Source of the DNA: an uncultured Chromatiaceae bacterium
GTDB taxonomy: Bacteria > Pseudomonadota > Gammaproteobacteria > Tenderiales > Tenderiaceae
Direction: 5' to 3'
Length of the DNA: 64,000 bases
Assembly: GCA_945787785.1 (NCBI GenBank)
Contig: CALZIO010000005.1
Span: 26,921 to 90,920 of the forward strand
Shown: positions 15,828-31,030 of the stretch, in pieces
Layout: every line of letters starts with the position of its first letter
How positions within the stretch are numbered: position 1 is the stretch's first letter
Notes under the pieces: model-generated
Databases searched by the model: none
The model's input: only the letters and a program-made list of their open reading frames with translations
Told to the model about the DNA's origin: nothing
Position numbers and translations under genes: made by a program

Positions 15828-15855
15828 ACGGGCGCCTTCGGGCGCCCGTTTTGTT
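15828..15855 (+). terminator. Rho-independent terminator of the porin gene
   Basis: ACGGGCGCC-ttcg-GGCGCCCGT followed by TTTGTTT. Confidence 0.85.
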
Positions 15856-15987: not shown

Positions 15988-16803
15988 ATGATCAGGAACA
16001 GGGTTTGCCTGCTGGGGAGCATGCTGCTATTTATGGTGGCTGGTGCCGAGGCAGGTATTTTCAATACAAAACATAATCTGGGCAGTACCGGTCTCAATGC
16101 GGCCAGTACCTTCAGTGGTACGCGTGAGATTTGTGTCTTCTGTCATACTCCTCATGGTGGCAATGGTGAGGCCGCGGCTCCGATCTGGAACCGCAATCTC
16201 GATCCTAACGGATTTGCCACCTATGATCAGATGGGGACTACAACCCTGGATGCTGCCATAGAGCCTGTTGGTTCAGTTTCTCTCGCCTGTCTCTCTTGTC
16301 ATGACGGTACTCAAGCCATGGATGCGGTCCTGAATGAGCCGGGTTCTGGCCGTGATGTACCGGGTTTTTCGACTGGCTTATGGATTGGGCAAGCGGCGCC
16401 GGTGGAGGGCCGGATTGCACAACCTTTTGTAGCATCAAATCTGGGCAAAGACTTAACCAATGACCACCCGATAGGGGTGCAATATGCCGGGGGTGGTTAT
16501 TCATTAACTGCGCCTGCAGGGCCTGGATATGATACAGATTTTCATCCTGCTGCGTCTGAAATCACGGGTACAAGTCGCGTCTGGTGGGTGAATACGTTTG
16601 CCCCAGGCGGTACGGGTGCCTTTGAGCGTACCGATATGAAGCTCTATACCCGTGTTGGTAACCGCGGCGGGGCCTATGTAGGCGAAGAGCAGCCGTATGT
16701 CGAGTGTGCGTCATGTCATGATCCTCATGTAGATGATAAGCCCACCTTTCTTCGTATCGATCCTGTAGGCAGCCAGGTCTGTCTGACATGTCATAACAAA
16801 TAA
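15988..16803 (+). CDS. Tetrahaem c-type cytochrome (paired-CXXCH type)
   Basis: Signal peptide. 4 CXXCH motifs (CVFCHTPH, CLSCHDG, CASCHDPH, CLTCHNK). Conserved KHNL, PIWNR and DLTNDHPI blocks. Confidence 0.9.
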   Translation: MIRNRVCLLGSMLLFMVAGAEAGIFNTKHNLGSTGLNAASTFSGTREICVFCHTPHGGNGEAAAPIWNRNLDPNGFATYDQMGTTTLDAAIEPVGSVSLACLSCHDGTQAMDAVLNEPGSGRDVPGFSTGLWIGQAAPVEGRIAQPFVASNLGKDLTNDHPIGVQYAGGGYSLTAPAGPGYDTDFHPAASEITGTSRVWWVNTFAPGGTGAFERTDMKLYTRVGNRGGAYVGEEQPYVECASCHDPHVDDKPTFLRIDPVGSQVCLTCHNK

Positions 16804-16818
16804 TATTGGAATAGACTA

Positions 16819-17826
16819 ATGGGCCGGAGTAGGTTAAGGCTGTGGGGATTGTTGTTTTGCTTAATGCTCACGCTGGCCTTCTCTTGTGCCAGGGCTGATC
16901 AGTCTGACGAGCCTTATGCTCGTGTCAACGATAAAGTGCTCACCAAGGCGGAGCTCGAAACCGCTATCTATTTAGCGGTGCGTCAGCGTGTTTACCATGG
17001 CCGCATGGATGACAAGCGCCTTGAGTCTCTGCGTATCCAGGTTTTGGGTGAGTTGATCGATAGGATGCTGTTGCTTGATGAGGCCAGGCGCCGAGATATA
17101 AAAGTCGATTCAGGACAGCAAAAGCAGCTCTATCTGGAGTTGCAGCGCAGGTATGATGTGAAGTCGATGCCGGATGATCATCGTCAGCAGGTTGAGGCAG
17201 AGATGCGGAAGCGGGCTGAGGAGCAGGTCTTATTGCTCAAGATTGAATCCGATGTAAAATCAGTTGCGCAACCAGAAGATGATAAATTAAGGCTGTTTTA
17301 TAAAGAGAATCTTGATAAGTTTACAACACCGCCAAGATTGCGTTTATCGGTGATCTTATTGAAAGTTGCACCGTCGGCCCCTGTTAAGGCATGGCAGGCG
17401 GCTGAAGCTGAAGCAAAGCAGTTGCATAAAAAAATAGAGGCAGGTGCGAGTTTCGCTGATTTGGCCAGGTTGCACTCTGGGGATGCCTCGGCTGACAATG
17501 GTGGGGATTTGGGGTTTGTGCATCAGGGGATGTTGTCTCCAGAGGCGCAGCAGGCGGTTGAGAGTTTAGCAGTTGGGGAGCTGTCCGCGCCTACGATTTT
17601 ACTGCAGGGCGTGGCGTTATTTCGAATTGAGGGACGTCAAGAGGCAAAGGTTAATCCTTTTGAGCATGTCAGGGAGCGTGCTGCGGGATTGTGGCGGCGT
17701 GAACAGGCTGACAAGGCCTGGGAGGGTTTGTTGCGGTCATTACGCGCTAAGGCAATTATTGAAATCTACGATAATACTATGACAGCGGCAAAAATTTGGG
17801 CGCAAAAAGAAGATGTTGTCCAGTAA
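16819..17826 (+). CDS. Periplasmic peptidyl-prolyl cis-trans isomerase (SurA-N-like plus PpiC/parvulin domain)
   Basis: Signal peptide. Parvulin signature GGDLGFVHQGMLSPEAQQAV...GELSAPTILLQGVALFRI. Helical N-terminal chaperone-like region. Confidence 0.85.
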   Translation: MGRSRLRLWGLLFCLMLTLAFSCARADQSDEPYARVNDKVLTKAELETAIYLAVRQRVYHGRMDDKRLESLRIQVLGELIDRMLLLDEARRRDIKVDSGQQKQLYLELQRRYDVKSMPDDHRQQVEAEMRKRAEEQVLLLKIESDVKSVAQPEDDKLRLFYKENLDKFTTPPRLRLSVILLKVAPSAPVKAWQAAEAEAKQLHKKIEAGASFADLARLHSGDASADNGGDLGFVHQGMLSPEAQQAVESLAVGELSAPTILLQGVALFRIEGRQEAKVNPFEHVRERAAGLWRREQADKAWEGLLRSLRAKAIIEIYDNTMTAAKIWAQKEDVVQ

Positions 17827-17838
17827 AAATAATAATGT

Positions 17839-19689
17839 ATGCGGAGTAGCTGGGCATTGCGGAATGTAATTCGATTTAGGCCCTTTGCGCTACCAGTCTT
17901 ACTGACTTTTGTTCTTCTCTTTTTAGGGGTGAGCCAAGTTGCTTTTGCTCGTTTTATGGGGCCGGTCGATGCTTCAGGCCATCTTGGTTATTATTACCGA
18001 GCTTTAAATGAAGATGGCGGCCCTGATAACAGCAGCCACCAATTGGGCGGCACGGTTAATATGTCCACCTTTTTTGGCGAACCTTGGTTGTCGACAGCCT
18101 ATCTGTCATTGAGCTTGACTCAAGATTCCTCCGAAACGGTGCAAGCTAACGCTGAGTCGAGTACCGATTCACAGCTGCTCACAGGCGATTTTGGTTTGAA
18201 TGTGTTACCTTCGAGCCGCACGCCTTTCTCGTTGCTTTTGCAGGCGACGGACACTCGGGTGGATTCCAAAGGTTCGGGATTTATCCCCATCACCTTTGTC
18301 GGGCAGGAGTACTCTACTCTGTATCTCGGATTGCGGCAGTCATTTTTGACCCAGAAGGGTACGCAATACCGCCTCAATTATGATTATCGTACCTGGGAGT
18401 CGGGAAATGATGGGGAGTACGATGATAATTTGCTGGGTTTCGAGGCTGATTTGCGCAGGCCAAAACAGCGCCTATTCGGGCGGGGTTCAGTTCAGACAAA
18501 CGAGCACTCACTTTCGCAGCGAAACAATGAAAGTTTGTTGCTTGATATGACACACTACTATTTCCCGGTGCGTAATTTCCGCCTGGATAGCAAAGCGAGT
18601 TACTACGAATATGATCGATCCTTTGTGGATCCGAGTGCAACAGATACCCGGCTTTCGACTTTGAATATTGCCCAGGTGTCGAGCAATGCCTTTTGGCGTC
18701 CTTCGAATCACCCATTGAGTTTGACTGCGGGTGCCCGTGTTTATAATACTGAGGGTAACGAAGGTAGCGTTCCCGGTACTGAGATAACCAATGTTGCCCT
18801 TAATTCAGGGCTCTTTTATCAGATGAGTCGGAATCTACGGCTGGATGCCAGCTTAAATTCGCTGTTTGGTGATAATAATGGTGTGCAAGATGATATTCAT
18901 CAACAGGCGGCTGGTTTTGTTTATCAAACGGATTTGAAAGAAGCTCTGAAGCTTGTTTATCAGGCTTATGTAGATGGTGATCTGCGGCATCGCGTGGATG
19001 TGGCCGATGATATTATGGATTGGTCTCTGATTGGGGGGCATGGCCTAAGTCGAACCTGGTGGCCGGGAGAGCGAACATCTACAATGTCCTTCCGTTTACA
19101 TCTGAGCCAAGCGTTGGCTTGGTATGGTGCGGCAGGTGATGTCTTGAGCTCCAGGTCAGGGTTAAGGTTTGATAATTCCTTTACGCTCAGCTTTAATCAG
19201 CGAGACAAGGGGGGCGATACGCTAGCGCAAATAACGATGTCTGATTCTCGCGATGTGGCCTCAGAAGATATTTCTAATGTAGCTACAGACCGGGATACGG
19301 AACAGCAATTAATCAATCTGCAGTTAAACCGAAATCAGGAATTGGGGCGTAGAAGCTCGATCACGGGTAATATTACGGTGCAATATGTACGTTTGCAGGA
19401 GGAGAATACGTCGACCGGGCTTGTAAATGTCGACGAAAGTGATACAACAACGGCTACAGGTAGAATATTGTTTCAGCATTTTCAAATGCTTGGCATCCCA
19501 AGGTTGCATTTTTCGTCAGATTTTATCGTATCCAATATATCTACACCGGGGGCGATAGATCGAACCGATTGGGAGAACCGGCTCACGTATTTAATAGGAA
19601 AATTGGAAACAACTTTAAGTTATCGTTTGACTGAGACTGACAGTCGCAATTATGATTTGCTATACTTCCGCCTCATGCGCCGCTTTTGA
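17839..19689 (+). CDS. Predicted large outer-membrane beta-barrel protein (no haem motif)
   Basis: 616 aa. Signal peptide (VLLFLGVSQVAFA). Ser/Thr/Asn/Tyr-rich alternating pattern throughout. C-terminal YFRLMRRF ends in Phe (OMP signature). No CXXCH. Confidence 0.7.
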   Translation: MRSSWALRNVIRFRPFALPVLLTFVLLFLGVSQVAFARFMGPVDASGHLGYYYRALNEDGGPDNSSHQLGGTVNMSTFFGEPWLSTAYLSLSLTQDSSETVQANAESSTDSQLLTGDFGLNVLPSSRTPFSLLLQATDTRVDSKGSGFIPITFVGQEYSTLYLGLRQSFLTQKGTQYRLNYDYRTWESGNDGEYDDNLLGFEADLRRPKQRLFGRGSVQTNEHSLSQRNNESLLLDMTHYYFPVRNFRLDSKASYYEYDRSFVDPSATDTRLSTLNIAQVSSNAFWRPSNHPLSLTAGARVYNTEGNEGSVPGTEITNVALNSGLFYQMSRNLRLDASLNSLFGDNNGVQDDIHQQAAGFVYQTDLKEALKLVYQAYVDGDLRHRVDVADDIMDWSLIGGHGLSRTWWPGERTSTMSFRLHLSQALAWYGAAGDVLSSRSGLRFDNSFTLSFNQRDKGGDTLAQITMSDSRDVASEDISNVATDRDTEQQLINLQLNRNQELGRRSSITGNITVQYVRLQEENTSTGLVNVDESDTTTATGRILFQHFQMLGIPRLHFSSDFIVSNISTPGAIDRTDWENRLTYLIGKLETTLSYRLTETDSRNYDLLYFRLMRRF

Positions 19690-19759
19690 TGCGTGAGTTT
19701 TGGGTTATAACAATAAAATTTAAGATTTTTTTCATACTAGTTTGAGGAGAACTTTCGCA

Positions 19760-20185
19760 ATGTCACGTGTGACCAAGCATAGTAAGTGGAGGTATGTTCT
19801 ACTCGGGGCAATAACGTGGCTAGCCGCGTTTAGTTTGCCTCAGTCAGCACATGCAGAGTATGCAGATGTTGTTATTAACAACTACGCCGATGCGGCCGGT
19901 ATCCGTCCTGTGGTATTTCCACACTGGTTTCACCGTATTCGTTTTCGTTGCAAGGTTTGCCACGCTGACCTTGGCTTCCAGTTCAAAGCTGGCGGTAACA
20001 AGATAACAATGGCTAAGATTATCGATGGTAAGTTCTGTGGCGCTTGCCACAACGGTGAAATCGCTTGGTCAGTTGAAAACTGTGCAATGTGTCACTCAGG
20101 TATTCCTGGCACACCGACCCATTTTCATGGTAGTACGGTTCAGCGCCTCGTTGCGCCTGCGTACAAGCCTGTTGAACAACAATAG
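19760..20185 (+). CDS. Trihaem c7-type periplasmic cytochrome
   Basis: Signal peptide ending SAHA. VVFPHWFH...CKVCH...CGACHNG...CAMCHSG (3 CXXCH, PpcA-like spacing). GAGGAGA RBS before the ATG at 19760. Confidence 0.88.
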   Translation: MSRVTKHSKWRYVLLGAITWLAAFSLPQSAHAEYADVVINNYADAAGIRPVVFPHWFHRIRFRCKVCHADLGFQFKAGGNKITMAKIIDGKFCGACHNGEIAWSVENCAMCHSGIPGTPTHFHGSTVQRLVAPAYKPVEQQ

Positions 20186-20193
20186 GGGTGGCC

Positions 20194-20934
20194 ATGATGA
20201 AAATACGTAGCAAGAGTTTATTTCTCGGTTTCGCCTTATCACTGGCAATTTCAGGTCCAGCTTGTTCTCAAGGTTATGTTGAAATCCATTCGGGTGGAGT
20301 TGAAGACATGCCTCTGGACTATGCGCCAGAATATCAGCCTGTTGATGAAGTCGCTCTCCCAGATCAAGAGCCTATTCGAGTGGCTCAGGTGTCAGGTGCG
20401 AATATATTCAACCGTAATCTGAAAAAAGATAAGATGAAGAATGCGCCACCTCCGGAAGATGGTATTCATGATACCGATAACGAAGGTACTTTCGTTCTTC
20501 AGCCACCATTGGAAGCCTACGAAGGTTTGCCTCCGAGTGATTTCGGTAACTACATCGACTGGGTTAAAGCAATTGATGAGAAGAAACTGAATCCTCGCTG
20601 GGATCGTATTGATTCAAGTGAAGAGCCCTTCGTTATGGATATGGATATCGTGCGTGAGGTAAAGGCCTCTGTGCCTGATGTAGTGTTCCCTCACCGTCAG
20701 CATACAGAGTGGTTAGCATGTTCAAATTGCCATCCAGCGATCTTCATTCCTCAAAAGGGTGCTAACCAAATAAATATGTCAGCAATCCTGTTGGGCCAAA
20801 AATGCGGTGTTTGCCACGGCAAGGTGTCTTTCCCAATTACAACTAAGTCTTGTAAGAAGTGTCACTCTAAGCCTAAGCCTGCTGATTGGCAGCCGCCTTT
20901 GAGTGAGGCTACTCTAAAGAATCCTTGGAGATAA
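20194..20934 (+). CDS. Trihaem c7-type cytochrome with N-terminal extension (probable lipoprotein)
   Basis: LAISGPAC lipobox-like signal. VVFPHRQHTEWLACSNCHP...CGVCHGKVSFP...CKKCHS (3 CXXCH). Confidence 0.88.
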   Translation: MMKIRSKSLFLGFALSLAISGPACSQGYVEIHSGGVEDMPLDYAPEYQPVDEVALPDQEPIRVAQVSGANIFNRNLKKDKMKNAPPPEDGIHDTDNEGTFVLQPPLEAYEGLPPSDFGNYIDWVKAIDEKKLNPRWDRIDSSEEPFVMDMDIVREVKASVPDVVFPHRQHTEWLACSNCHPAIFIPQKGANQINMSAILLGQKCGVCHGKVSFPITTKSCKKCHSKPKPADWQPPLSEATLKNPWR

Positions 20935-21088
20935 CCGTTATCTCTATCTGATTCTGTCTCACTAGTTATTGGTATGAGATGGCCGCCGCATGGCGGCCTT
21001 CTTACACTAGGTGGTTGAGATGTCGGGCTGGCCGATGATACGGAATGTGCCAGCGGTAAGTTGAAATGATTTACTGTCGAGGGTGACG

Positions 21089-22579
21089 ATGATGAAACCA
21101 AGATTTACAGTTCTGACAATTGCGATTGCCGCAATTTTATCGGGTTGTGGTTCTACCACAACTGAAAAGAAAGCTGATGTAACTTCGCTTGAAACAAGCG
21201 GTGAGCCAGTTGCTGTTGAAACAGAGGTAAAAAAGGCTGTGGTCGTTGCGCCTGAGCCCGCCCCAAAAGCGGCGCCAGTTGAGACTGCTCCTGTTGCGCC
21301 AGTTGTTGCTGCTCCGGCAGTGGCTGCCGCGCCGAAACGTGACCTGAAGATTCCAACTGATCCCAACACTTTTTTGGTTACTGCCTCACCCAAAACACAT
21401 GCGCACCCTTCGCATGGGCAGGGTTTGGAAACCGGCTTTGATGTCAATGGACAGCCTGGCAAAGAGGTTGTTGTAACGCGCGGTGGTGCATATAAATTTG
21501 TCGTTGATACAGGTGTGCAACACGATTTCTATTTGACAACGAATCCTGCTGGCTGGGGTGCGGGTACATACACAGATGGTGTCGAAGGCCAGTTTATCTA
21601 TCAGGGTGAGGTAACTTTCAACCCATCTAAACAGACCCCAGACCTGCTCTATTACCAGTGCCGCAATCATAAGTATATGGGCGGAAAAATCTATGTGCTG
21701 GATGAAGGCGAAGATTTGGCTAAAGTCAAAGCTGCGTTGGTTGGTACCACCGGGGCCGCAGCAGCTAAGCGCGGTTCTACCACCGTCGTTACCGAAGCTG
21801 CCGTGAAGCAGAAGTTGAGTTATGCCCAAATGGTACTTGGTTCAGGCAGTGCAAAACGTGTCGAGGCGAGTGGCAATCAGCAAGCAATTAGTACGCTGAA
21901 TAACGCCCGGGGCCAAATTGGCGCGGCCAAAGTATCTCTTGATGGTGGCCAGCTACAGCTAGCGATGGATCAGGTGAATGACGGGCTGCGTTTGATGACT
22001 GCGGCATCTCGTGAAATTACCACAGAATCTGAAATGGCTGGCGTTAACCATAAGGCGAAATATGATGAGTTGAGTAATTCACTCAAAACATATGAGGGCT
22101 CCTATAAGCGTAATTCGGAGCGTGCTGCCAAAATGAATCAGCCAATGAAGGCAAGCCTGGATGAGGCTGAGTACAATCGCTTGGTCAATGAAGGTCATGC
22201 CTTGGCCGACAAAGGCGATTACGCTGCAGCAAATAAGTCGCTTAAAAAAGCGCAGGGGATGATAACTGCTGTTCTGACAAATATGCTTCATGCTCAAACG
22301 GTGACATATGATAAAAGCTTCGAAACTCCGCAGGAGGAGTATGAGTATGAATTGGCGCGTTTAGAGAACTACGAGGAGCTTGTTCCTATCGCGATCGAGC
22401 AGAAACAGCCATCGCAACGCGCATTAGAGTTGATTGATGGATTCGTACAGAAAGCAGCTAAGATTAAGGATGAAGGCAAAGAAGTTGCAGCCAAGGGTGA
22501 TTATAAAATGGGAATTATGGCCATGCAGGCGGCAACTTCAAATCTGCAGCGTGCATTACGCATGGCTGGGGTGAACTAG
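21089..22579 (+). CDS. Lipoprotein with Ala/Pro-rich linker, cupredoxin-like (type-1 Cu motif) domain and long helical C-terminal domain
   Basis: Lipobox AILSGC. The beta-rich segment KEVVVTRGGAYKFVVDTGVQHDF...LLYYQCRNHKYMGGKIYV gives an H...C-x2-H-x2-M ligand pattern, as in amicyanin-type blue copper proteins. About 270 aa of Ala/Lys/Gln-rich predicted helices follow. Confidence 0.7.
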   Translation: MMKPRFTVLTIAIAAILSGCGSTTTEKKADVTSLETSGEPVAVETEVKKAVVVAPEPAPKAAPVETAPVAPVVAAPAVAAAPKRDLKIPTDPNTFLVTASPKTHAHPSHGQGLETGFDVNGQPGKEVVVTRGGAYKFVVDTGVQHDFYLTTNPAGWGAGTYTDGVEGQFIYQGEVTFNPSKQTPDLLYYQCRNHKYMGGKIYVLDEGEDLAKVKAALVGTTGAAAAKRGSTTVVTEAAVKQKLSYAQMVLGSGSAKRVEASGNQQAISTLNNARGQIGAAKVSLDGGQLQLAMDQVNDGLRLMTAASREITTESEMAGVNHKAKYDELSNSLKTYEGSYKRNSERAAKMNQPMKASLDEAEYNRLVNEGHALADKGDYAAANKSLKKAQGMITAVLTNMLHAQTVTYDKSFETPQEEYEYELARLENYEELVPIAIEQKQPSQRALELIDGFVQKAAKIKDEGKEVAAKGDYKMGIMAMQAATSNLQRALRMAGVN

Positions 22580-22679
22580 TGATATTGGCGTAATGTCAAA
22601 GTTTGTGTATAGTTCGTAGGCTGCCATCAATAGTGATAGCAGCCGGATTTTTGGGAAGCAGTTAATTAGATTTGGTATT

Positions 22680-23276: not shown

Positions 23277-24571
23277 TAGCTTGTCTGTTTGGGGTGATGC
23301 AGCTGATAGGTTGCGCCACAACTGAGCAGACGTCTACGCCAAGCGTGGCTGATGATAAGGCAGCTGCAGAGCTGGCTGAGCTGTTTGATGATTTTTCCGA
23401 CGAATCAGAAACTCCAGTCACTGAAACGCAAGCTGTTTCTGAGCCCGTAGAAACTCCACCAAAAGACGTCATAGAAGAAGCTGTCGATGAATCGATAGAT
23501 CCATTGGATCAAATTGCTGCGACAGCTCCTGAGCCTGTACTTCCCAAGCCCCATGCCGTAGCCACTATCCAGATCTATGATTGGAATGTGATTGATGGCG
23601 CGCCTATTGGTAATGCCTTTACCGCCGCGGTTCAAAACCGCTTTATACGCCCAGTAGCCATTGCGGTTCAGGGTGAATATCTCTACGTAGTAGATGAGGG
23701 GTATGATGCACTGTATCGGTTAGATCTGTCCACGGAAGAGCTAGAGGTCATATTTGACCTTAAAAAGGTGGTAAAAGGCGAAGTTGCCGATATTTATGTC
23801 GATAAGGATTTTTCATTTTACTTGACCGATACCGAGGCGGGTCGGGTCCTGCATTTTGATCAAAATGGACGTTTGATTCAGGAGTTTCGTAATCATTTTA
23901 ATTTGGTCAAGCCGGTTGCAGTAACGGTGTTTGAGAGTGGTGACTTGGTTGTCGCCGATGGTCATTACGACCACCTCTTACACTTCAATAGCGAGGGTAA
24001 GCTGATTGCAACTTACGGTGCTCGAGGCGATGCCGTGGCTGAATTTCTCAATATATTGACCATGGCAAAAGGCCCGGACGGGTTTTATGTCGGTGGCCGG
24101 GTTGGTCGTCGTATTCAGGTTCTCGGTTCAGATGGGAATTACCTCTATGCATTTGAAGAGGGTACGGTCGTTTTTCCGGCATCCATTGTCGTTGATGGCA
24201 ATAATCGCAGCTATGTTGCAGATTATATGGACAACACCATCAAGGTATTTGATCGCGGCGGCCCAATTGGTGTCATCGGTGGCCACGGTACTGAGCCTGG
24301 GAAATTTAAGCGCGTTACTGATCTTTGGCTGGTTGGAAACGTCTTATACATCGCCGACAGCCTCAATGGCAGAATCCAGGCGGCCAAGTTGTCGCCAGAT
24401 CCGGTGCCGCTTCCTAGTCCAGTATTCGAATCAGATGCTGAGCTATTTCAGGAAACAGTAGAAGAGTCTGCCGAAGCGGATGTGAAATCTGTAGACGGTA
24501 TGGCGGAAGACATTGTTGAAGGTGCGGACGAAAAAGCTCAACCCGCAAAATCATCAGATTCTATCCAATGA
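23237..24571 (+). CDS. NHL-repeat six-bladed beta-propeller lipoprotein with acidic N- and C-terminal tails
   Basis: Lipobox MQLIGC. Six NHL-type repeats (YLYVVDEGYDALYRLD, FYLTDTEAGRVLHFD, LVVADGHYDHLLHFN, FYVGGRVGRRIQVL, SYVADYMDNTIKVFD, LYIADSLNGRIQAA). Start assigned to the ATG at 23237, 40 nt inside the previous gene. Confidence 0.85.
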   Translation: MPFCTERQSRLKIIACLFGVMQLIGCATTEQTSTPSVADDKAAAELAELFDDFSDESETPVTETQAVSEPVETPPKDVIEEAVDESIDPLDQIAATAPEPVLPKPHAVATIQIYDWNVIDGAPIGNAFTAAVQNRFIRPVAIAVQGEYLYVVDEGYDALYRLDLSTEELEVIFDLKKVVKGEVADIYVDKDFSFYLTDTEAGRVLHFDQNGRLIQEFRNHFNLVKPVAVTVFESGDLVVADGHYDHLLHFNSEGKLIATYGARGDAVAEFLNILTMAKGPDGFYVGGRVGRRIQVLGSDGNYLYAFEEGTVVFPASIVVDGNNRSYVADYMDNTIKVFDRGGPIGVIGGHGTEPGKFKRVTDLWLVGNVLYIADSLNGRIQAAKLSPDPVPLPSPVFESDAELFQETVEESAEADVKSVDGMAEDIVEGADEKAQPAKSSDSIQ

Positions 24572-25698
24572 TCGAACATAAGCGTTGTTTCACAGCGCTT
24601 GGCTGTGTCGTGTTTCTGTTAATTCTCACGGGCTGTGCTCAGCTCCCCGCAGTATTTGAATATAAACCATTTGATGAAGCCAAAGGCGATCTGGTGTGGC
24701 CAGAGCCGCCTGATATCGCTCGATATCGTTACGTTGGCCAATTAACCGGTGAGGAAAATTTCCCCCGCCCAGGTGAGGACGCGCTCAATGCCGGGGCGCG
24801 GTTGGTTCGCTGGATGGTCGGGCTGGTGGGGCATAGTGCGGATCCTGTGATTCTGCAACGCCCGCAGGCAGTGATCACTGATGGTCAAGGAAAAATTTTT
24901 GTCAGCGATGTTAGTCGCCAGGCTGTTTACATGTTTGACACGGTTCAAGCAGAGTTGAAAGTGTGGGAAAACGCAGTAGAAGGGATTCGCTTTGAACTAC
25001 CAATTGGATTAGCCGTTGGTCTGAATGGTGAGTTGCTGGTATCGGATGCCTCGTTGCAATTAGTTGCCCGGCTGGGGCCGGATGGTGAGCCAATCGGAGT
25101 GATTGGTTTAGATCAGCTACAGCATCCCACTGGATTGGCCAGAGACCCCCAGCTCGGACGAATCTATGTGGCAGATCGGGGTGCCAACAACATCAAGGTT
25201 TTTTCTGACGTGGGAGAATTTCAGTTTGAATTTGGCGAGTTTGGTGAGGAAGCTGGCCAGCTGAATGGGCCTACCTACTTGTTTTGGCACGAGAATTTAC
25301 TCTATGTGACGGATGCGCTTAATTCAAGAATACAGATTTTTTCACCTGATGGTGAATATCAGTCCCATTTTGGGCGGCGCGGACTTTACTTGGGGGATTT
25401 GCCCCGTCCTAAGGGGGTGGCAGTCGCTCAAGACGGTAAAGTCTATGTGGTAGAATCCTATTACGACTATTTGTTAATATTCAACCGCGAAGGTGAGTTA
25501 TTATTACCTATTGGCGGTACAGGCCATGAGGTGGGACAGTTTTATCTGCCTGCCGGGGTCTGGGTTGAGAATAACTATGTTTATGTTGCGGATACATTTA
25601 ACGGCCGCGTGATGATTTTTGAATATCTTGGAGATGGAGATGCGTCGGACGTTGCAGGTGATAGCAGCTCTGATATTGACGACGCTGCTGGCGGTTAA
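24568..25698 (+). CDS. NHL-repeat beta-propeller lipoprotein
   Basis: Lipobox LILTGC. NHL repeats (IFVSDVSRQAVYMFD, LLVSDASLQLVARL, IYVADRGANNIKVF, LYVTDALNSRIQIF, VYVVESYYDYLLIF, VYVADTFNGRVMIF). ATGA overlap with the upstream gene. Confidence 0.88.
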   Translation: MIEHKRCFTALGCVVFLLILTGCAQLPAVFEYKPFDEAKGDLVWPEPPDIARYRYVGQLTGEENFPRPGEDALNAGARLVRWMVGLVGHSADPVILQRPQAVITDGQGKIFVSDVSRQAVYMFDTVQAELKVWENAVEGIRFELPIGLAVGLNGELLVSDASLQLVARLGPDGEPIGVIGLDQLQHPTGLARDPQLGRIYVADRGANNIKVFSDVGEFQFEFGEFGEEAGQLNGPTYLFWHENLLYVTDALNSRIQIFSPDGEYQSHFGRRGLYLGDLPRPKGVAVAQDGKVYVVESYYDYLLIFNREGELLLPIGGTGHEVGQFYLPAGVWVENNYVYVADTFNGRVMIFEYLGDGDASDVAGDSSSDIDDAAGG

Positions 25699-28378
25699 CG
25701 CCCAAGCAGCAGAAAGAGTATCGGATATCCGCAATACCAAACACAATTTCTCCGCCGTGGTAATACCTGCGTTGCCGGATGGTGCTGCGCGTACGGTCCA
25801 GGCAGTTTCAGAATCGCAAATCTGCGCTTTTTGCCACACGCCGCATAAAGCGAGTAAACAAGCTCGGGCGCCGATTTGGAATCGCAAATTATCAGGTGCT
25901 ACTTATACGCCTTATACCAGCTCCTCGATTGATGCTGTTAATCTTGGCCAACCCAATACCAAGTCCAAATTATGTCTTTCCTGCCATGACGGCACCCTGG
26001 CTATTGGAGCTGTTAATGTTCTCAATAGAGTTGAAAACCCAAACATCCCAATGCGGGGTACAGCACCTGATGGCACTATGCCTGCCGGTTTGGGCGATCG
26101 GTCTGGTTTTACCCGCCGCCTCGGCACGGACTTGACCAATGACCACCCGATTTCATTCACTTATGATTCAGCCCAGGCCAGCCGCGACGGAGAGTTGCGT
26201 GACCCTTCTCTGGATACAGTTATAGGCGAACGTGGGCCGGGAACGCATCGAGCAACACTACCTCTGGAAGATGGTCAGATGGAATGTGTCTCCTGCCATG
26301 ATCCACACATACGCAGTACTTCAGGTGAAAATATCAAGTTTCTGCGGGTTAACCGGTTTCAACAAACTACCCCAGTCGAAGGCACTTATAATCAGGCAAA
26401 CGATATTATTTGCTTGGCGTGTCACGAGAAATCCGGTTGGGCTGACTCGGCGCATGCCAATATGGCGGTGGGAGATGAAAGATACACCGATGCCGCGGCC
26501 GAGATTCGAGAATTTCCACAGAATATGCAAGTTTGGCAAGCAGCCTGTTTGAATTGCCATGACCCGCATACCGTTCAGGGCTCGCGTCGCCTGTTGCGTG
26601 AAGGTACTGATGATGCAGGTCAGGTTGTGAGTGCTGGTGGAAGTGCTATCCGCGTTAAGCAGGGCGGTGGTGCAGCGATAGAAGAGACTTGCTATGCATG
26701 CCATTCAGTTGATGGCAACGTCTTGCAGGGGCAGCCAAACAAGGGTGTGTTTCAAGTGCCTGATATTAAAACCGATTTCACCACCATGCGCATCCACATG
26801 CCGATCGCAAGTGAAGACCAGGCAGCTGGCGAAGAACGCCATGCTATCGGTACTTTCCCGGCGCCGCAAAACGGCAAGGACTTCATGGAGTCACAGCAGC
26901 GTCTCGGCAAGGGTGACCTGAGTAACCGCCATGCCGAGTGTACAGACTGTCATAATCCTCATCGTGTCATCAAGAATCGTAGCTTTAATGACGACCCCAA
27001 GTTCCCGGATATTGAAGGGACCCATAACCACACAACTTCACAGATTGCCGGTACGCTGGAAGGGCAGCATACCAATCTTGCCTCAGGGGTCCTGCGTGGA
27101 GCCTGGGGTGTTGAGCCAACCTCCTGGACCAGTACGGAGTTCACCAGCCGACCAGTCACCTTTGAGGTCAAGCGTGGTGACGCTATAGTCGGTGGCAATG
27201 CCGATGTCAGCGCGACTTATGTGACGCGTGAGTATCAGATTTGTATGAAATGCCATTCGAATTATGGTTTTGATGCACCAGCACCATTGGGCACCAATCA
27301 TTCTGGTGGTACGCCAGCCGGAACCAATGCACTCTTTAACTATACCAACCAAGGTATGGAATATCAGTCACCAGATGATCATAAAGGCGAAGTGACCCCT
27401 GCTACGCCTACTGGGGCATATGCTGGCAGTGTTGGTGAGTGTGCTGATGTTAATTTTGGCACCCTGGATTTAACCGATCCCGCTGCATTGCTTTACTACA
27501 ATACTTATGTAAAACGGGCTGGCTATGTTGATCCCAATGGAAACTGCGTTAATTATGTTACTGATAATCATCGTGCCTGGCACCCAATTTTGAAGGAGAC
27601 AGGTCGTACCGCTGTTCCTGGTGGTGGAGGTGTGCGCGATGCTGATTCCGATGACTGGCATGAGCCGTTCAACGCTGCGGTGGGTACACAGACGATGTAT
27701 TGTACTGATTGCCACGGTTCGGATACCGCTCAAGGCACAGTAGTGCCGCGCGGATTGCAGCCCAATGGTAATGTGTGGGGACCACATGGGTCAGAAAACG
27801 ACTTCCTGCTGAAAGGCAGTTGGAGTGATGAAACCGGTCAGAACACTGCTGCAGATGGTCTCTGTTTCAAGTGTCACAACTACAACTACTATGGCAGAAA
27901 ATATCCCGCCGGTGTGATTAACCCGAATTCGACCAAGGATAGTGGTTTTAGCCGAGATCCGGCTTTGGGAGTGGCATCATGCCTCTATGTGCCATCAGTA
28001 AATCTTCATACTGGACATGCTCAAGAAAGACAGGTGAGTAATTTCCGTTGTAGTTATTGCCATGTTTCGATCCCGCATGGTTGGAAGAACAAAAATTTCC
28101 TCAATAATCTGAACGATATCGGCCGTGAAGTAGGGTTGGCAACTGGTGGTAATCAGGTGCGTAATAATCAGACCAGCCGTTATTACCGTGGTCCTTATTA
28201 CAATGGCGCAGTGTTGAAAATTGTGCAATTCCGCCAGAGTGGCCAATGGGTGCATAACACCTGTGGTTCGGCTGGCAATCCCGGTAATGGCAATGTTGGT
28301 GGTAATGGTAACTTCGGAAACATACCCTGGATGACGGACCAGGGTTCAGGCAGTGAGGCCTGTAACCTAATCCCATGA
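25640..28378 (+). CDS. Undecahaem (11 CXXCH) large c-type cytochrome
   Basis: Signal peptide (LLAVNAQAAE). 11 canonical CXXCH motifs. The N-terminal roughly 270 aa repeat the architecture of the 271-aa tetrahaem protein. Asn/Gly-rich C-terminal tail. GGAGA RBS 5 nt before the ATG at 25640. Confidence 0.9.
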   Translation: MRRTLQVIAALILTTLLAVNAQAAERVSDIRNTKHNFSAVVIPALPDGAARTVQAVSESQICAFCHTPHKASKQARAPIWNRKLSGATYTPYTSSSIDAVNLGQPNTKSKLCLSCHDGTLAIGAVNVLNRVENPNIPMRGTAPDGTMPAGLGDRSGFTRRLGTDLTNDHPISFTYDSAQASRDGELRDPSLDTVIGERGPGTHRATLPLEDGQMECVSCHDPHIRSTSGENIKFLRVNRFQQTTPVEGTYNQANDIICLACHEKSGWADSAHANMAVGDERYTDAAAEIREFPQNMQVWQAACLNCHDPHTVQGSRRLLREGTDDAGQVVSAGGSAIRVKQGGGAAIEETCYACHSVDGNVLQGQPNKGVFQVPDIKTDFTTMRIHMPIASEDQAAGEERHAIGTFPAPQNGKDFMESQQRLGKGDLSNRHAECTDCHNPHRVIKNRSFNDDPKFPDIEGTHNHTTSQIAGTLEGQHTNLASGVLRGAWGVEPTSWTSTEFTSRPVTFEVKRGDAIVGGNADVSATYVTREYQICMKCHSNYGFDAPAPLGTNHSGGTPAGTNALFNYTNQGMEYQSPDDHKGEVTPATPTGAYAGSVGECADVNFGTLDLTDPAALLYYNTYVKRAGYVDPNGNCVNYVTDNHRAWHPILKETGRTAVPGGGGVRDADSDDWHEPFNAAVGTQTMYCTDCHGSDTAQGTVVPRGLQPNGNVWGPHGSENDFLLKGSWSDETGQNTAADGLCFKCHNYNYYGRKYPAGVINPNSTKDSGFSRDPALGVASCLYVPSVNLHTGHAQERQVSNFRCSYCHVSIPHGWKNKNFLNNLNDIGREVGLATGGNQVRNNQTSRYYRGPYYNGAVLKIVQFRQSGQWVHNTCGSAGNPGNGNVGGNGNFGNIPWMTDQGSGSEACNLIP

Positions 28379-29397
28379 TGCGCTGGTTACGCAGGTTAGC
28401 CTCAACACGGCTAACCTTGCTTGGCATGGCGCTGTTAGCTGTCGGCGCCAGCCTCAGTTATGGCAATCCCGCCGAAGTTTCTGCTTGGGTGTTGATTGCC
28501 CCGCTGCTGTTTCTCGCGCTTAATTTACTTGCTGCAATTATTACCCAGCCAGGCATCAATCGGCGCCCGGGTTTGTTGTTGTTTCATTTGGGACTGCTGT
28601 CTATTTGCGTTCTCACTGCCATTGGCCAGTTGACCTATTTCGAATCCCGCGTCGAAGTGACGCAAGACAGCGTCTTTGAATTGTCAGCAATGCAAGAGGT
28701 GCAGCAGGGCCCGTGGCATCTTGGTGAACTGGGCAAGGTTCAGTTTGTCCAACAGGGTTACACCGTAGAATACCGGCCAGGATTGGTGCGTGGGGCGACA
28801 CGAAGCCATATATTGCTACCTGACGGCAAAGGTGGTTGGAAAGCTGAGGTGGTCGGGGATGATACGCCGCTGATTATCGATGGCTATCGTTTCTATACCA
28901 CCTTTAACAAGGGGTTTGCGGCGGTTCTGACATGGATTACAGAACAGGGTGAGGCAATGACAGGTACGATACACATGCCTTCCTATCCGCTGTTTGATTA
29001 CAAGCAGGCGAATAGTTGGTTGCCGCCAGGTAGCGAGGAAGAAATCAAGTTCTGGCTGCGTCTCGAAACCGATTTTGACCGTGAGGCAGATTGGCTCTTG
29101 GATGGTGCCAAAACACACGCCGTGTTAGTCGTTAATGACGGCGACCAGCGGGTTGAATTGCAGCCGGGCCAAGGCATCGATTTGCCAGGTGGTCATTTAC
29201 GTTATGAGGCATTGAGCACCTGGATGGGTTACAAGATTTTTTATGACCCGACACTGAAATGGCTGTTTATAGCAGCGATGATCACGGTGTTTGGTTTGTG
29301 TCTGCATTACTGGAGTAAATTTCAGGACCAGCCCATGGACCAGCCAGAAGATCAATCACCAGAGCAGTTAGCGGGCAAGGCGCAGGATAGAAAGTGA
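28375..29397 (+). CDS. ccsB: System II cytochrome c biogenesis protein ResB/CcsB (short form)
   Basis: N-terminus LRRLASTRLTLLGMALLAVGAS, TM His (LLLFHLGLL), large soluble loop, final TM with His (LCLHYW). Lies immediately upstream of ccsA. Start overlaps the cytochrome stop (ATGATG). Confidence 0.75.
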   Translation: MMRWLRRLASTRLTLLGMALLAVGASLSYGNPAEVSAWVLIAPLLFLALNLLAAIITQPGINRRPGLLLFHLGLLSICVLTAIGQLTYFESRVEVTQDSVFELSAMQEVQQGPWHLGELGKVQFVQQGYTVEYRPGLVRGATRSHILLPDGKGGWKAEVVGDDTPLIIDGYRFYTTFNKGFAAVLTWITEQGEAMTGTIHMPSYPLFDYKQANSWLPPGSEEEIKFWLRLETDFDREADWLLDGAKTHAVLVVNDGDQRVELQPGQGIDLPGGHLRYEALSTWMGYKIFYDPTLKWLFIAAMITVFGLCLHYWSKFQDQPMDQPEDQSPEQLAGKAQDRK

Positions 29398-29416
29398 ATC
29401 AGGTGGAAACAAATAG

Positions 29417-30265
29417 ATGACAAGCACAGTTACAGAACTTCCCTGGATGTGGGCCGGTCTTTTCTCCTATGCTCTGGCGACGATAATCGCCTTTCGCACT
29501 GTCTGGCAGCTTGGCGGTGTCGGCTCTATTGCATTGCCAAGCCGCAATACTGAACGCTGGATATTATTGTTTATTGTTAGTGGTGTTGTGTTGTTGACCA
29601 TTGCTCTTGGTGTGCGTTGGGATCGACTCGGTCACGGCCCTTTCGTCAATCTCTATGAGCTGCTGATGAGTCAGCTGTTTAGTCTTGGTTTGATTTATGC
29701 CATCGTCTATTGGCGCGTGCCAAGCCTTCGTTCAAGTGCTGTGGTGGTGTTACCACTGATCTGGATTTTAGGCACCTGGATCCTGTTTCTCGAGCCGGTC
29801 GATAGTCGCTTTCCACCTACATACCATAACAACTGGCTTTGGGCTCATGTTGGGTTCGGCAAGGTCTTTCTTTCGTTCTGTCTGGTGGCAGCAGGGTTGG
29901 CGGGTGTCATTTTGTTGCGAGCCATTCCGCGTTTTGGCCGTTCATTTTCCAATATGAGCGACGCAGCGCTTGATCAGCTTGCCTGGCGTTTCATGATGCT
30001 GGCACTGGTGTTTGATAGCCTGATGCTGATTGCAGGCGCGGTCTGGGCGCAGGATGCCTGGGGGCGTTATTGGTCCTGGGACGCACTGGAAACCTCTTCT
30101 TTCATCACCTGGCTTTCTATCGGTGCAGGTATTCATGCCCGCTTGAGTTTCAAAATTCCTATCCGGATGGGGGCTCTGGTGATTCTGGCGATTTTTGGCC
30201 TTGCGTTCACCACCTATTTTGGCGCGCCGTATTACAGCGAAGCCGCGCACAAGGGAGTTATTTGA
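29417..30265 (+). CDS. ccsA: System II cytochrome c assembly protein CcsA (haem lyase/exporter subunit)
   Basis: Trp-rich WWD motif VWAQDAWGRYWSWDALETSSFITWL. Multiple TM helices. 282 aa. Confidence 0.88.
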   Translation: MTSTVTELPWMWAGLFSYALATIIAFRTVWQLGGVGSIALPSRNTERWILLFIVSGVVLLTIALGVRWDRLGHGPFVNLYELLMSQLFSLGLIYAIVYWRVPSLRSSAVVVLPLIWILGTWILFLEPVDSRFPPTYHNNWLWAHVGFGKVFLSFCLVAAGLAGVILLRAIPRFGRSFSNMSDAALDQLAWRFMMLALVFDSLMLIAGAVWAQDAWGRYWSWDALETSSFITWLSIGAGIHARLSFKIPIRMGALVILAIFGLAFTTYFGAPYYSEAAHKGVI

Positions 30266-30268
30266 TCC

Positions 30269-30958
30269 ATGTCTGTTGTTGAGTCACACAACCTGCTCGA
30301 AAAAACCACGGCTATCACGACAGTCATGTTGGTGTTGGTGATGTTGGCGATGATGTCAGGGTTTGCCAATCGTGCCCAGTTTGTCTTTCAGCCTGTCATT
30401 GAAACTGAGGAGATACTCGTCGACGCCAAGGCTGATCCGCGCGGCCATGCGCAACAATACCGGCAGCGGTTGATTGATGAACGTTTCCAGCAGGCGGTCG
30501 CAATGCTGCATGCCAATCAGTTTGATTTCGCCATTACCGCCCTGCATCGTGTGATTGAGCTGGCGCCGAAAATGCCCGAAGCCTATGTCAACATGGGTTA
30601 CGCCTTGATTGGCAAGCAGGATTACAAGGCAGCGGCAGATTTTTTTAACGCCGCGATTGAACTCAAACCGTATCAGGCCAATGCCTACTGGGGCCTGGCG
30701 GTATCGCTGGAGCAGCTGGGCGAACTAGACGCAGCGCTCGGCGCCATGCGTACCTTTATTCATCTCTCGCCACCTAATGATCCCTTCCTGCGTAAAGCGC
30801 GTTCAGCTTTATGGGAGTGGGAGTCAGCACTTAAACGTGGTCCATTGCCTGAAGCGGAACAGGAGTGGATTGAACGTCGCAGTGGAGAATGGCAGGAGCG
30901 AAATAGTCTTGAGGCAGATATGCCCGATGCAAAAGATCACACTATAGATGTGAAATAA
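30269..30958 (+). CDS. Membrane-anchored TPR-repeat protein
   Basis: N-terminal TM (ITTVMLVLVMLAMM). TPR-like repeats (AYVNMGYALIGKQDYKAAADFFNAAIELKP, AYWGLAVSLEQLGELDAALGAM). Confidence 0.75.
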   Translation: MSVVESHNLLEKTTAITTVMLVLVMLAMMSGFANRAQFVFQPVIETEEILVDAKADPRGHAQQYRQRLIDERFQQAVAMLHANQFDFAITALHRVIELAPKMPEAYVNMGYALIGKQDYKAAADFFNAAIELKPYQANAYWGLAVSLEQLGELDAALGAMRTFIHLSPPNDPFLRKARSALWEWESALKRGPLPEAEQEWIERRSGEWQERNSLEADMPDAKDHTIDVK

Positions 30959-30992
30959 GGACCAAAGGGGTTGGGCGGCGCTCCCTTTGGTC

Positions 30993-31030
30993 GTGCGCGA
31001 GGTGGAAGTCTTGCTCGCGCACGGTTTTTT
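30993..31030 (+). terminator. Rho-independent terminator closing the cytochrome operon
   Basis: GTGCGCGAG-(12 nt)-CTCGCGCAC followed by GGTTTTTT. Preceded by a second hairpin ACCAAAGGG...CCCTTTGGT (30961-30991). Confidence 0.8.

Follow-up and report, generated by a model that had tools for sequence, protein, structure and literature searches.

Introduction

The uet (undecahaem electron transfer) gene cluster, uetABCDEFGHIJ-ccsAB-nrfG, was named for 'Candidatus (Ca.) Tenderia electrophaga' and the order Tenderiales (Eddie et al. 2022, bioRxiv 10.1101/2022.05.06.490989; mSphere). Its published order begins with the tetrahaem cytochrome UetA, the peptidyl-prolyl isomerase UetB, the beta-barrel UetC and the trihaem c7 cytochromes UetD and UetE, and continues with the cupredoxin UetF, a further c7 cytochrome (UetG), the NHL proteins UetH and UetI, the undecahaem cytochrome UetJ, CcsA, CcsB, a TPR protein and BatD/BatB/BatA (Eddie et al. 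2022). The same authors predicted a UetC of 28 strands, an extracellular location of UetA and UetJ, and transfer of electrons inward to cbb3 oxidases, and they found uet genes to be differentially expressed on poised cathodes by Ca. T. electrophaga, a cathode-oxidising aerobe (Eddie et al. 2022). Subsequently, Uet was treated as a known porin-multihaem complex, present in six Gallionella genomes (Hoover et al. 2023, PMC10734462). The present analysis concerns the operon at positions 15988-30958 of a stretch of 64,000 nucleotides, referred to at its full length as the window, from an uncultured Chromatiaceae bacterium (Gammaproteobacteria, Tenderiales, Tenderiaceae in GTDB; assembly GCA_945787785.1, contig CALZIO010000005.1, positions 26,921 to 90,920 of the forward strand). 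This operon is a further copy, of the Tenderiales type and gammaproteobacterial, of the uet cluster, and is thus already known and named.

A separate literature deals with the cytochrome nanowires of Geobacter and its relatives. PDB entry 7TFS is the OmcE filament of Geobacter sulfurreducens, and 9YUQ is the OmcE nanowire bundle of Desulfuromonas soudanensis (bioRxiv 10.1101/2025.10.22.684050). Beside resB/ccsB, the core of the omcE cluster encodes OmcE together with a large barrel and two each of multihaem cytochromes and beta-propeller lipoproteins, and OmcE homologues are reported to share a pattern of '4 + 4 histidines' (bioRxiv 10.1101/2025.10.22.684050). For the osc operon of G. sulfurreducens, factors of folding (OscH), secretion (OscEFG) and morphology (OscD) have been proposed, according to the account of Shen et al. 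2025 excerpted in PMC13194489. The Uet paper is silent on OmcE and speculates on 'conductive polymers' (Eddie et al. 2022); the OmcE paper is silent on Tenderia and Uet, yet it reports OmcE homologues of Pseudomonadota near a porin and a propeller (bioRxiv 10.1101/2025.10.22.684050).

Results

Identity and layout of the operon

Between positions 15988 and 30958, the list of open reading frames (ORFs) and their translations comprises 13 consecutive ORFs, all on the + strand, which match the published uet list one to one and in order. The first-pass annotation, made from the letters of the sequence, had regarded this composition as a candidate undescribed system, a view that does not hold since the same 13-gene order was named in 2022 and treated as known in 2023. 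Its description of the system as uncharacterised is apt with regard to experiments, the published description being in silico work and expression data, and fails with regard to novelty. The operon and its boundaries are as follows.

15827-15850, + strand: intrinsic terminator 3' of the porin gene, stem of 10 bp with 8 GC pairs and then a T-rich tail; upstream boundary of the operon
15988-16803, + strand: uetA, secreted tetrahaem cytochrome, OmcE homologue (4 CXXCH; matches to PDB 9YUQ and 7TFS)
16819-17826, + strand: uetB, periplasmic SurA-N/PpiC-type peptidyl-prolyl isomerase chaperone (Pfam Rotamase 3e-15, SurA_N_3 2.5e-07)
17839-19689, + strand: uetC, predicted outer-membrane beta-barrel (28 strands in AlphaFold2; C-terminal Phe, ...RRF)
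19742-20185, + strand: uetD, periplasmic c7-type trihaem cytochrome (Pfam Cytochrome_C7 5.9e-16)
20188-20934, + strand: uetE, c7-type trihaem cytochrome with an N-terminal extension of ~150 amino acids (aa) (Cytochrome_C7 1.8e-11 at residues 165-227; 3 CXXCH)
21083-22579, + strand: uetF, lipoprotein with a disordered tether, a cupredoxin domain (96-206) and a helical domain (212-495) as predicted by AlphaFold2 (lipobox LSGC)
22680-23276, + strand: uetG, c7-type trihaem cytochrome (Pfam Cytochrome_C7 1.3e-12; Geobacter PpcA E 2e-6, blastp)
23228-24571, + strand: uetH, NHL beta-propeller lipoprotein with acidic low-complexity tails (Pfam NHL; lipobox LIGC)
24568-25698, + strand: uetI, NHL/DUF5128 beta-propeller lipoprotein (NHL 1.1e-21, DUF5128 2.6e-12; lipobox LTGC)
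25619-28378, + strand: uetJ, secreted undecahaem cytochrome (11 CXXCH; OmcE-like module at residues 8-271 and a 7-haem extension of ~650 aa)
28375-29397, + strand: ResB-like (CcsB/ResB), short and divergent System II haem-handling protein (Pfam ResB 2.8e-12, partial)
29417-30265, + strand: CcsA-type System II haem lyase subunit (Cytochrom_C_asm 8.2e-20; Geobacter CcsA E 3e-19, blastp)
30269-30958, + strand: TPR protein (NrfG/NlpI-like in the Uet literature), presumed maturation helper (TPR_2 5e-14; weak TPR_CcmH_CycH)
30960-31030, + strand: operon terminator, tandem hairpins (30960-31022) and then T6

The operon reads as one unit, with tight or overlapping junctions, a terminator on either side and a gene set that recurs in 36 of 55 genomes. 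Intergenic spacing ranges from -80 to +148 nt, the two largest gaps being the 148 nt between uetE and uetF and the 100 nt between uetF and uetG, and ATGA at 24568, ATGATG at 28375 and an ATG at 23237 within the preceding gene are seen at the junctions. A terminator scan found no strong terminator within 15988-30958, and the double hairpin downstream has a folding energy of -39.2 kcal/mol (z = -3.15). The ORF list, the junctions and the two terminators hence bear out the initial description of 13 + strand genes bracketed by terminators. Some starts are probably to be revised, namely those of uetC (17857), uetF (21089), uetD (19760), uetH (23237) and uetJ (25640); for uetC and uetF the revision is proposed because identical database proteins measure 610 aa and 496 aa, respectively.

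In the translations, the five cytochromes hold 4 (271 aa), 3 (147 aa), 3 (248 aa), 3 (198 aa) and 11 (919 aa) CXXCH motifs, 24 in sum, while the remaining eight products hold none, so that the count first given for a tetrahaem, three trihaems and an 11-haem protein is correct. Pfam also agrees with the earlier calls of a SurA-N/PpiC isomerase, three c7 cytochromes, NHL proteins, ResB, CcsA and a TPR protein, and NHL matches together with the lipoboxes of UetH and UetI support two NHL lipoproteins. The lipoboxes of UetF, UetH and UetI are canonical and have no Asp at +2. UetA and UetJ carry ordinary signal peptides and no lipobox.

Distribution and synteny

A genome collection of 185,579 species was searched, in which an alignment of UetJ retrieved UetJ-like genes from at least 582 species genomes. 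Among the matches listed, the nearest genome is a Ca. Tenderia sp. metagenome-assembled genome (MAG; L009), which carries the same uet gene order and whose proteins are 73% (UetJ), 77% (UetA) and 91% (UetD) identical to those of the window, with a range of 44-91% overall and 48-91% for the Uet proteins proper. Carriers among the matches listed belong to the Gamma-, Beta- and Alphaproteobacteria, the Magnetococcales and the Nitrospinota, and include the cultured Hydrogenophaga sp. RWCD_12 and Sphaerotilus mobilis DSM 10617. A scan of the collection with peptide patterns from UetC alone yielded no confirmed locus.

Synteny was counted over 55 fetched loci having at least 9 kb of upstream sequence. 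UetA, UetB, UetC, at least two c7 genes, UetF, UetI and UetJ follow one another in the same order in 36 of these, a further 15 are devoid of one or two uet genes, and four have UetJ alone. A synteny search had been proposed in the first-pass annotation as a check, and barrel, NHL and 11-haem genes do co-occur. Conservation is very uneven across the cluster. UetD is its most conserved protein: identities in other loci span 67-96%, with values of 67-79% when Gamma- are compared with Betaproteobacteria and a maximum of 96% among Tenderiales-like genomes. UetC, by contrast, drops to 24-26% identity over the same span. In a betaproteobacterial variant of the cluster (MAG GCA_029884575.1), the second c7 (L004 12367-13440, L005 11783-12856) carries a monohaem domain of class I (Cytochrome_CBB3-type) as a fusion partner; this variant features four c7 genes as well as an additional NHL gene upstream of uetA.

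Homology of UetA and UetJ to OmcE

Judged by sequence comparison, UetA and residues 1-271 of UetJ are homologues of the OmcE nanowire subunit, a relationship new in this analysis. Over its full length, UetA matches 9YUQ (E 2e-25) and 7TFS (E 2.8e-23) in the PDB. The Geobacter OmcE sequence was rebuilt from the PDB alignments, the Geobacter protein and its locus were retrieved, and direct blastp then aligned UetA with OmcE at 30% identity over the full length (E 1e-27). In addition, UetA scores 140 bits against an OmcE-family hidden Markov model (HMM), and its orthologues (n=49) all keep the four CXXCH motifs together with H29, H56, H160 and H247, which is the '4 + 4 histidines' pattern of OmcE homologues.

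Residues 8-271 of UetJ align with OmcE residues 1-232 (E 1.6e-26, blastp), and a profile of seven UetJ orthologues, searched against all PDB sequences at E<=1, returned OmcE only, by way of the N-terminal part (7TFS 1.8e-32, 9YUQ 5e-20). The 11 CXXCH motifs are invariant in these seven orthologues, and 11 are present in 88 of 92 homologues. According to the HMM, UetJ contains a single OmcE module; tandem OmcE modules, which would make UetJ a 'pre-polymerised' wire, were considered and rejected, the matches beyond residues 8-271 being short and centred on CXXCH. The profile search of PDB sequences at E<=1 gave no match to solved nitrite, hydroxylamine, sulfite or tetrathionate reductases, and the NCBIfam models of NrfB, NrfH, DmsE and OmcA/MtrC scored far below their cut-offs (TIGR03508, 49 bits against 192; TIGR03507, 21 bits against 209). 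The 11-haem protein thus does not turn out to be a homologue of a solved soluble-substrate enzyme, a possibility that the first-pass annotation had named as damaging to its proposal, since the PDB profile search returns OmcE only.

Apart from the uet loci, a protein labelled as Rhodocyclaceae, RHDC3_02603, is 65% identical to Geobacter OmcE, compared with ~30% for UetA. This likeness points to one of two explanations: Betaproteobacteria acquired a Geobacter-type omcE by horizontal transfer, or the sequence was wrongly binned.

The UetC barrel

UetC matches no family in Pfam or NCBIfam. Its AlphaFold2 model, built with 38 homologues, reaches a mean predicted local distance difference test (pLDDT) score of 88.1 and has 28 predicted strands of at least 12 residues, and its best match among all PDB chains is MtrB (6R2Q_B, E 8e-9, template modelling (TM) score 0.43). 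For 28 strands, standard barrel geometry gives an estimated C-alpha diameter of ~5 nm, in agreement with the published model. The earlier proposal that a haem-free protein of 616 aa forms an outer-membrane barrel is hence supported by the predicted fold and the terminal Phe, with the length probably to be corrected to 610 aa.

No homology is claimed between UetC and the barrel of the Geobacter omcE cluster. A blastp comparison of the two yielded nothing, hhalign with the single sequence gave 0.4%, and a 58-sequence HMM gave 10.7 bits; a profile-profile comparison with four Geobacter-type barrels reached 54%, in an alignment that is out of register, as unrelated barrels give.

Trihaem cytochromes, chaperone and propellers

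UetD exceeds the cut-off of the nanowire_3heme model TIGR04257 (69 bits, cut-off 40), and UetB matches NCBIfam PPIase models below their cut-offs. Likewise new here is the sequence homology of UetI to the beta-propeller lipoprotein encoded in the Geobacter omcE cluster, with 29% identity across 335 aa (E 4e-38, blastp); UetH matches the same propeller at E 5e-13 (blastp) and occurs in only 28 of the 55 loci. The core layout of the omcE cluster is seen in four Geobacter-type loci, in each of which one propeller gene was called.

Domain structure of UetF

UetF is predicted to carry a cupredoxin domain of the type-1-copper type with putative His/Cys/His/Met ligands. In the AlphaFold2 model (pLDDT 83), a disordered tether of ~90 residues precedes an eight-stranded sandwich (96-206, pLDDT >90) and a helical region (212-495). 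H147, C193, H196 and M199 are invariant in both alignments of 15 and 43 orthologues, and the C-x2-H-x2-M spacing resembles that of amicyanin. The only Pfam match is PF25489, which is not a cupredoxin model. In Foldseek, EfeO ranks first (1e-4), and rusticyanin (3e-4, TM ~0.42), CueO and plastocyanin are matched too, with probabilities of 0.99-1.00 for the cupredoxin matches. The lipoprotein with a type-1 copper ligand pattern noted at first pass is therefore corroborated by the LSGC lipobox, the invariant ligands and the predicted cupredoxin fold.

Across uet clusters, the C-terminal domain is universal. The cupredoxin domain occurs in only ~20 Tenderiales-like loci, a restriction to one lineage that is also new in this analysis, and the copper site is for this reason regarded as an add-on and not as part of the core. 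The universal domain, which has no Pfam family, is often encoded by two paralogous genes of ~290-300 aa; most non-Tenderiales clusters have two such paralogues side by side and no cupredoxin (L008 4125-5931, L036 6231-7972 and many others). It contains a motif of acidic and aromatic residues that hardly varies, E418-E419-Y420-E421-Y-E423...R426...E432, in which EEYEYE...R (residues 418-426) could be a metal-binding site. A true sequence homology of UetF with EfeO/imelysin was considered and rejected (hhalign E 0.34): Peptidase_M75 matches neither the C-terminal domain of UetF nor its stand-alone paralogues, while the control, E. coli EfeO, is matched at 4e-42. The likeness to EfeO is retained as a lead from structure.

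Haem attachment and neighbouring genes

Outside the operon, the window holds the following features that bear on it.

14714-15805, + strand: general porin (Porin_4; Pfam PF13609, E 5.5e-35)
39126-45825, - strand: batD-batB-batA-DUF4381-DUF58-MoxR (Pfam BatD, VWA, DUF58, AAA_3)
46863-53900, + strand: complete System I, ccmA, B, C, E, F, redoxin-type ccmG, H and I
59888-60967, - strand: NHL lipoprotein beside a 5-haem cytochrome (UetI E 5e-42, Geobacter propeller E 9e-39, blastp)
60952-61698, - strand: second OmcE-like cytochrome, 5 haems, 248 aa (UetA E 6e-23, OmcE E 5e-19, blastp; OmcE-family HMM 105 bits)

The ResB/CcsA pair of the operon is a divergent, shortened System II. The ResB-like gene is conserved 3' of uetJ in 47 of 55 loci; its product, of 340 aa compared with ~450 aa in Geobacter, covers positions 145-283 of the 486 of the Pfam model and matched no NCBIfam model. 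CcsA scores 109 bits against TIGR03144, below the equivalog cut-off of that model, and the TPR gene is conserved in 40 of 55 loci. Because a complete ccm operon shares the window, ResB/CcsA/TPR constitutes a second, additional system of haem attachment, a further point new in this analysis, and with ccm and ResB/CcsA both encoded, the organism would therefore run both pathways. The private haem-attachment genes postulated at first pass are thereby confirmed, as an addition to a complete Ccm.

The porin gene is a conserved upstream neighbour in Tenderiales-like loci, probably on a transcript separate from uet: the order rplM-rpsI-porin-uetA recurs in four loci, and a porin match was found in only 9 of the fetched loci. 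In the window, a DDE transposase of 454 aa (12955-14319, - strand) is inserted between rpsI and the porin gene, an insertion that is missing from relatives, which keep rplM-rpsI-porin. A tRNA gene at 12532-12602 is the sole Rfam match in the 64-kb window, and G+C content ranges from ~41 to 57% per 2-kb segment.

Downstream, the bat module is counted in the conserved Uet region as genes 14-18 (Eddie et al. 2022), and bat genes also lie downstream of uet in two other loci. Between uet and bat, a glycosylation island (31119-38692) encodes a membrane glycosyltransferase of 721 aa (PMT_2, GT39/83-like), an amine-oxidase-like flavoprotein, a polysaccharide deacetylase, a GT2 and a UDP-GlcNAc 2-epimerase. 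Geobacter omcE clusters have glycosyltransferases downstream, and OmcE is glycosylated; a conserved parallel was nevertheless rejected, the island not being kept beside uet in other loci and the GT2 similarity being generic (22-28%).

The group at 53912-63998, with thioredoxin, Reg_prop, GGDEF-EAL, NHL and multihaem proteins, corresponds to the published 'secondary cytochrome cluster'. Its + strand part (53912-59714) encodes a thioredoxin-like protein, a monohaem cytochrome c of 109 aa, two Reg_prop proteins and a HAMP-PAS-GGDEF-EAL protein of 820 aa, and may link c-di-GMP signalling to electron-transfer genes. At 59888-61698, the stop of the 5-haem cytochrome gene overlaps the NHL lipoprotein gene. 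Five-haem OmcE-like proteins have been proposed as a possible new nanowire family (bioRxiv 10.1101/2025.10.22.684050).

Discussion

Proposed mechanism

We infer that the operon functions as an electron conduit. The uet operon of this Tenderiales-type gammaproteobacterium probably specifies a conduit across the outer membrane, composed of UetC and cytochromes of the OmcE family, through which electrons would most likely move inward. UetC would span the outer membrane as a barrel of 28 strands, while UetA, with four haems, and UetJ, with an OmcE-like 4-haem module and seven further haems, would provide a haem path through and beyond it, perhaps with one of the cytochromes residing in the barrel. 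The c7 trihaems UetD, UetE and UetG would carry electrons across the periplasm, and in the Tenderiales-like lineage UetF, as an outer-membrane lipoprotein, would add a high-potential type-1 copper site. UetB, UetH and UetI may help to fold, place or anchor the cytochromes, to which the haem attachment by ResB/CcsA/TPR would be dedicated. Electrons from a solid or extracellular donor, such as a cathode, Fe(II) or a reduced mineral, would thus pass inward to cbb3-type oxidases encoded elsewhere. Inward flow is favoured because of the cathode expression in Ca. T. electrophaga, the lithotrophic carriers including Fe(II)-oxidising Gallionella, and the rusticyanin-like domain. The trans-envelope conduit put forward in the first-pass annotation accordingly agrees with the published hypothesis and survives the checks that were run (barrel, enzyme homology and packing), while its claim to novelty is lost.

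Several points weigh against this mechanism. The published support for Uet comes from an uncultured organism, by way of comparative genomics, metatranscriptomics and metaproteomics, and the taxonomic argument for inward flow is circumstantial. According to NCBIfam models, the operon encodes no periplasmic decahaem of the MtrA/DmsE type, and Pfam calls reveal no quinol-side partner in it. UetC shares no sequence homology with MtrB/PioB, as judged from the lack of a Pfam match, and its TM score to MtrB is only 0.43. Moreover, the cupredoxin is absent from most uet clusters and therefore not essential to the core mechanism.

Alternative readings and their weight

Partly overlapping with the conduit model is the reading of uet as the proteobacterial counterpart of the omcE locus of Desulfuromonadia, which we consider possible, though clearly less probable. 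UetA would polymerise by ligation of haem by His residues between subunits, UetC would serve as secretion pore or anchor, UetB, UetH and UetI as assembly machinery comparable to OscH and OscD, and UetJ as base or tip of the filament. OscH is said to contain a prolyl isomerase, and OscD is reportedly propeller-like. The homology of UetA to OmcE over the full length, with retention of the four CXXCH and four His, speaks for this reading, as do the parallel between the uet parts list and the core of the omcE cluster and the match of UetI to the Geobacter propeller (E 4e-38). An OmcE-like cytochrome furthermore adjoins an NHL lipoprotein three times, in Geobacter NHL-omcE, in uetI-uetJ and at window positions 59888-61698. 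The authors of 9YUQ hold OmcE homologues near a porin and a propeller, including those of Pseudomonadota, to be candidate nanowire formers (bioRxiv 10.1101/2025.10.22.684050), conductive polymers were speculated on by Eddie et al. (2022), and the osc operon of OmcS is proposed, in the excerpted account in PMC13194489, to supply folding, secretion and morphology factors. On the other hand, UetA is just ~30% identical to OmcE and polymerisation is not a property that a sequence can reveal; homology between UetC and the Geobacter barrel was not shown by blastp, hhalign (0.4%) or profiles (54%, out of register); Geobacter omcE clusters are devoid of a PpiC gene, UetF and an undecahaem cytochrome; and no filament has been reported from Tenderiales. 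A related and more speculative proposal, to which we give somewhat less credence, treats Uet as a nanowire system in reverse, in which a UetA filament collects electrons for aerobic lithoautotrophs and UetJ is the initiator or anchor, or the tip, threading UetC. UetJ would then dock to the end of the filament by the same His-haem interface, and UetB, UetH and UetI would be dedicated assembly machinery.

It is unlikely that uet instead works like OmcE and MtrCAB and exports respiratory electrons to extracellular acceptors, for example partner cells, anodes or oxides of Fe(III) or Mn(IV). All experimentally characterised relatives, namely OmcE filaments, PpcA-type c7 cytochromes and MtrB-like barrels, export electrons in metal reducers, multihaem chains are intrinsically reversible, and facultative anaerobes (Rhodocyclaceae, Dechloromonas and Aromatoleum-related bacteria) are among the matches listed that carry uet. 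Set against this are the expression of uet by Ca. T. electrophaga during growth as a cathode-oxidising aerobe, the predominance of lithoautotrophs and of Fe(II) and sulfur oxidisers among the carriers in the matches listed, and the resemblance of the lineage-specific cupredoxin to rusticyanin, a high-potential carrier of Fe(II) oxidation. Nor is a quinol dehydrogenase of the CymA, ImcH or CbcL type linked to the operon; the first-pass annotation had likewise seen none of the CymA/NapC/ImcH/CbcL type, and the Pfam calls include none. Very improbable is a function apart from energy metabolism, be it an envelope system for iron or other metals, such as one in which an EfeO-like UetF would oxidise and take up Fe(II) for nutrition or detoxification with the cytochromes as electron sink, or a set of periplasmic redox enzymes acting on a soluble substrate. 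A metal-handling role could draw on the structural likeness of UetF to EfeO, its best match, which belongs to EfeUOB, a system of Fe(II) uptake, and has the same cupredoxin-plus-helical layout, and on the acidic/aromatic motif EEYEYE...R (418-426), which could bind metal; yet UetF has no sequence homology to EfeO/Peptidase_M75, the TM-scores are low, EfeU- or EfeB-like genes are missing from the Pfam calls, and 24 haems, a predicted 28-strand barrel and OmcE-family cytochromes go far beyond the needs of nutritional uptake. A soluble-substrate enzyme is disfavoured by UetJ, which has no relative among solved multihaem enzymes.

Significance

Since the cluster has been named in the literature since 2022, the finding opens no new category. 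The interest that may remain lies in the unrecognised kinship with OmcE, in the wide distribution including cultured strains, and in UetJ as a possible filament base or tip. Uet ranks among the least tested proposed routes of microbial electron uptake; it is spread well beyond Tenderiales, and the cultured Hydrogenophaga and Sphaerotilus might permit genetics. By relating UetA and UetJ to OmcE, and UetI to the propeller, the analysis joins the literatures on cathode oxidisers and on Geobacter nanowires, which do not cite each other, and yields the structural hypothesis that UetJ forms the base or tip of a filament. According to the authors of the D. soudanensis OmcE study, Geobacter-type operons encode no candidate for a base, tip or stopper (bioRxiv 10.1101/2025.10.22.684050). 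If the reverse-nanowire proposal were true, Uet clusters would supply the missing filament base or tip, and a nanowire-type system would exist in hundreds of proteobacterial and Nitrospinota species. The modularity of UetF, in turn, separates the core machine, represented by the helical domain, from an adaptation, the blue-copper domain, probably to high-potential donors.

Comparison with known systems

The uet cluster of Ca. Tenderia shares with the window the 13-gene order, the domain content, the 11-haem UetJ, the predicted 28-strand UetC, three c7 cytochromes, the UetF cupredoxin and two NHL proteins, as well as the System II pair and the TPR protein, followed by the bat module and the secondary cytochrome cluster downstream. 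Unlike it, the window has a glycosylation island between uet and bat and an insertion sequence upstream of the porin gene, and no window protein is identical to any retrieved named Tenderia record. These are differences at the species level and not those of another kind of system.

For single components, likenesses extend to metal uptake and Fe(II) oxidation. EfeO of EfeUOB (PDB 7WGU) resembles UetF, as its top Foldseek match, in the layout of an N-terminal cupredoxin and a C-terminal helical domain; it differs in that no sequence homology is detectable, TM-scores are low and uet is not accompanied by EfeU/EfeB partners. The rus operon of A. ferrooxidans (Cyc2-Cyc1-rusticyanin-aa3) likewise combines a blue-copper protein with c-type cytochromes for extracellular electron uptake, and the predicted cupredoxin domain of UetF matches rusticyanin structurally (E 3e-4, TM ~0.42). 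In contrast to rus, uet has neither the fused porin-cytochrome Cyc2 nor oxidase genes, UetF is tethered as a lipoprotein and has a helical domain in addition, and the cupredoxin is missing from most uet clusters.

MtrCAB, MtoAB and PioAB also pair a large outer-membrane barrel with multihaem cytochromes on either side. MtrB is the best structural match of UetC in the PDB, and UetJ has a Pfam match of the MtrC/MtrF domain II/IV type (44 bits). Differences are the 28 predicted strands of UetC compared with 26, its lack of a match to the MtrB_PioB family, the missing decahaem of the MtrA/DmsE type (TIGR03508, 49 bits against 192) and the fact that UetJ is neither a lipoprotein nor a member of the OmcA/MtrC family. 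With the osc operon, compared by its description, uet shares the concept of a nanowire cytochrome gene among assembly genes, to which UetB, UetC and UetH/UetI would be analogous, although the sequence of OmcS has no relationship to those of OmcE and UetA.

The omcE clusters of G. sulfurreducens and D. soudanensis stand closer. OmcE is homologous to UetA and to residues 8-271 of UetJ, with the same four CXXCH and four His, and the propeller lipoprotein is homologous to UetI and, more weakly, to UetH. In addition, both systems comprise a large barrel that belongs to no Pfam family, a c7 trihaem (PpcA in Geobacter) and ResB/CcsA in adjacent position, and extra multihaem cytochromes. Unlike in uet, the barrel measures 713-765 aa, compared with 610 aa for UetC, and homology of the barrels is not demonstrable; uet adds the PpiC chaperone and UetF, has three c7 cytochromes instead of one, and fuses the OmcE module to a 7-haem extension, whereas Geobacter has 8- and 9-haem proteins and no undecahaem. 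Gene order also differs, and the hosts of uet are aerobic or microaerophilic lithotrophs, not metal reducers. The first-pass annotation had described the operon as a mixture of the logics of MtrCAB and rus, which is sound as an analogy and not as a statement of kinship, the closest experimentally characterised relatives being the OmcE nanowire clusters.

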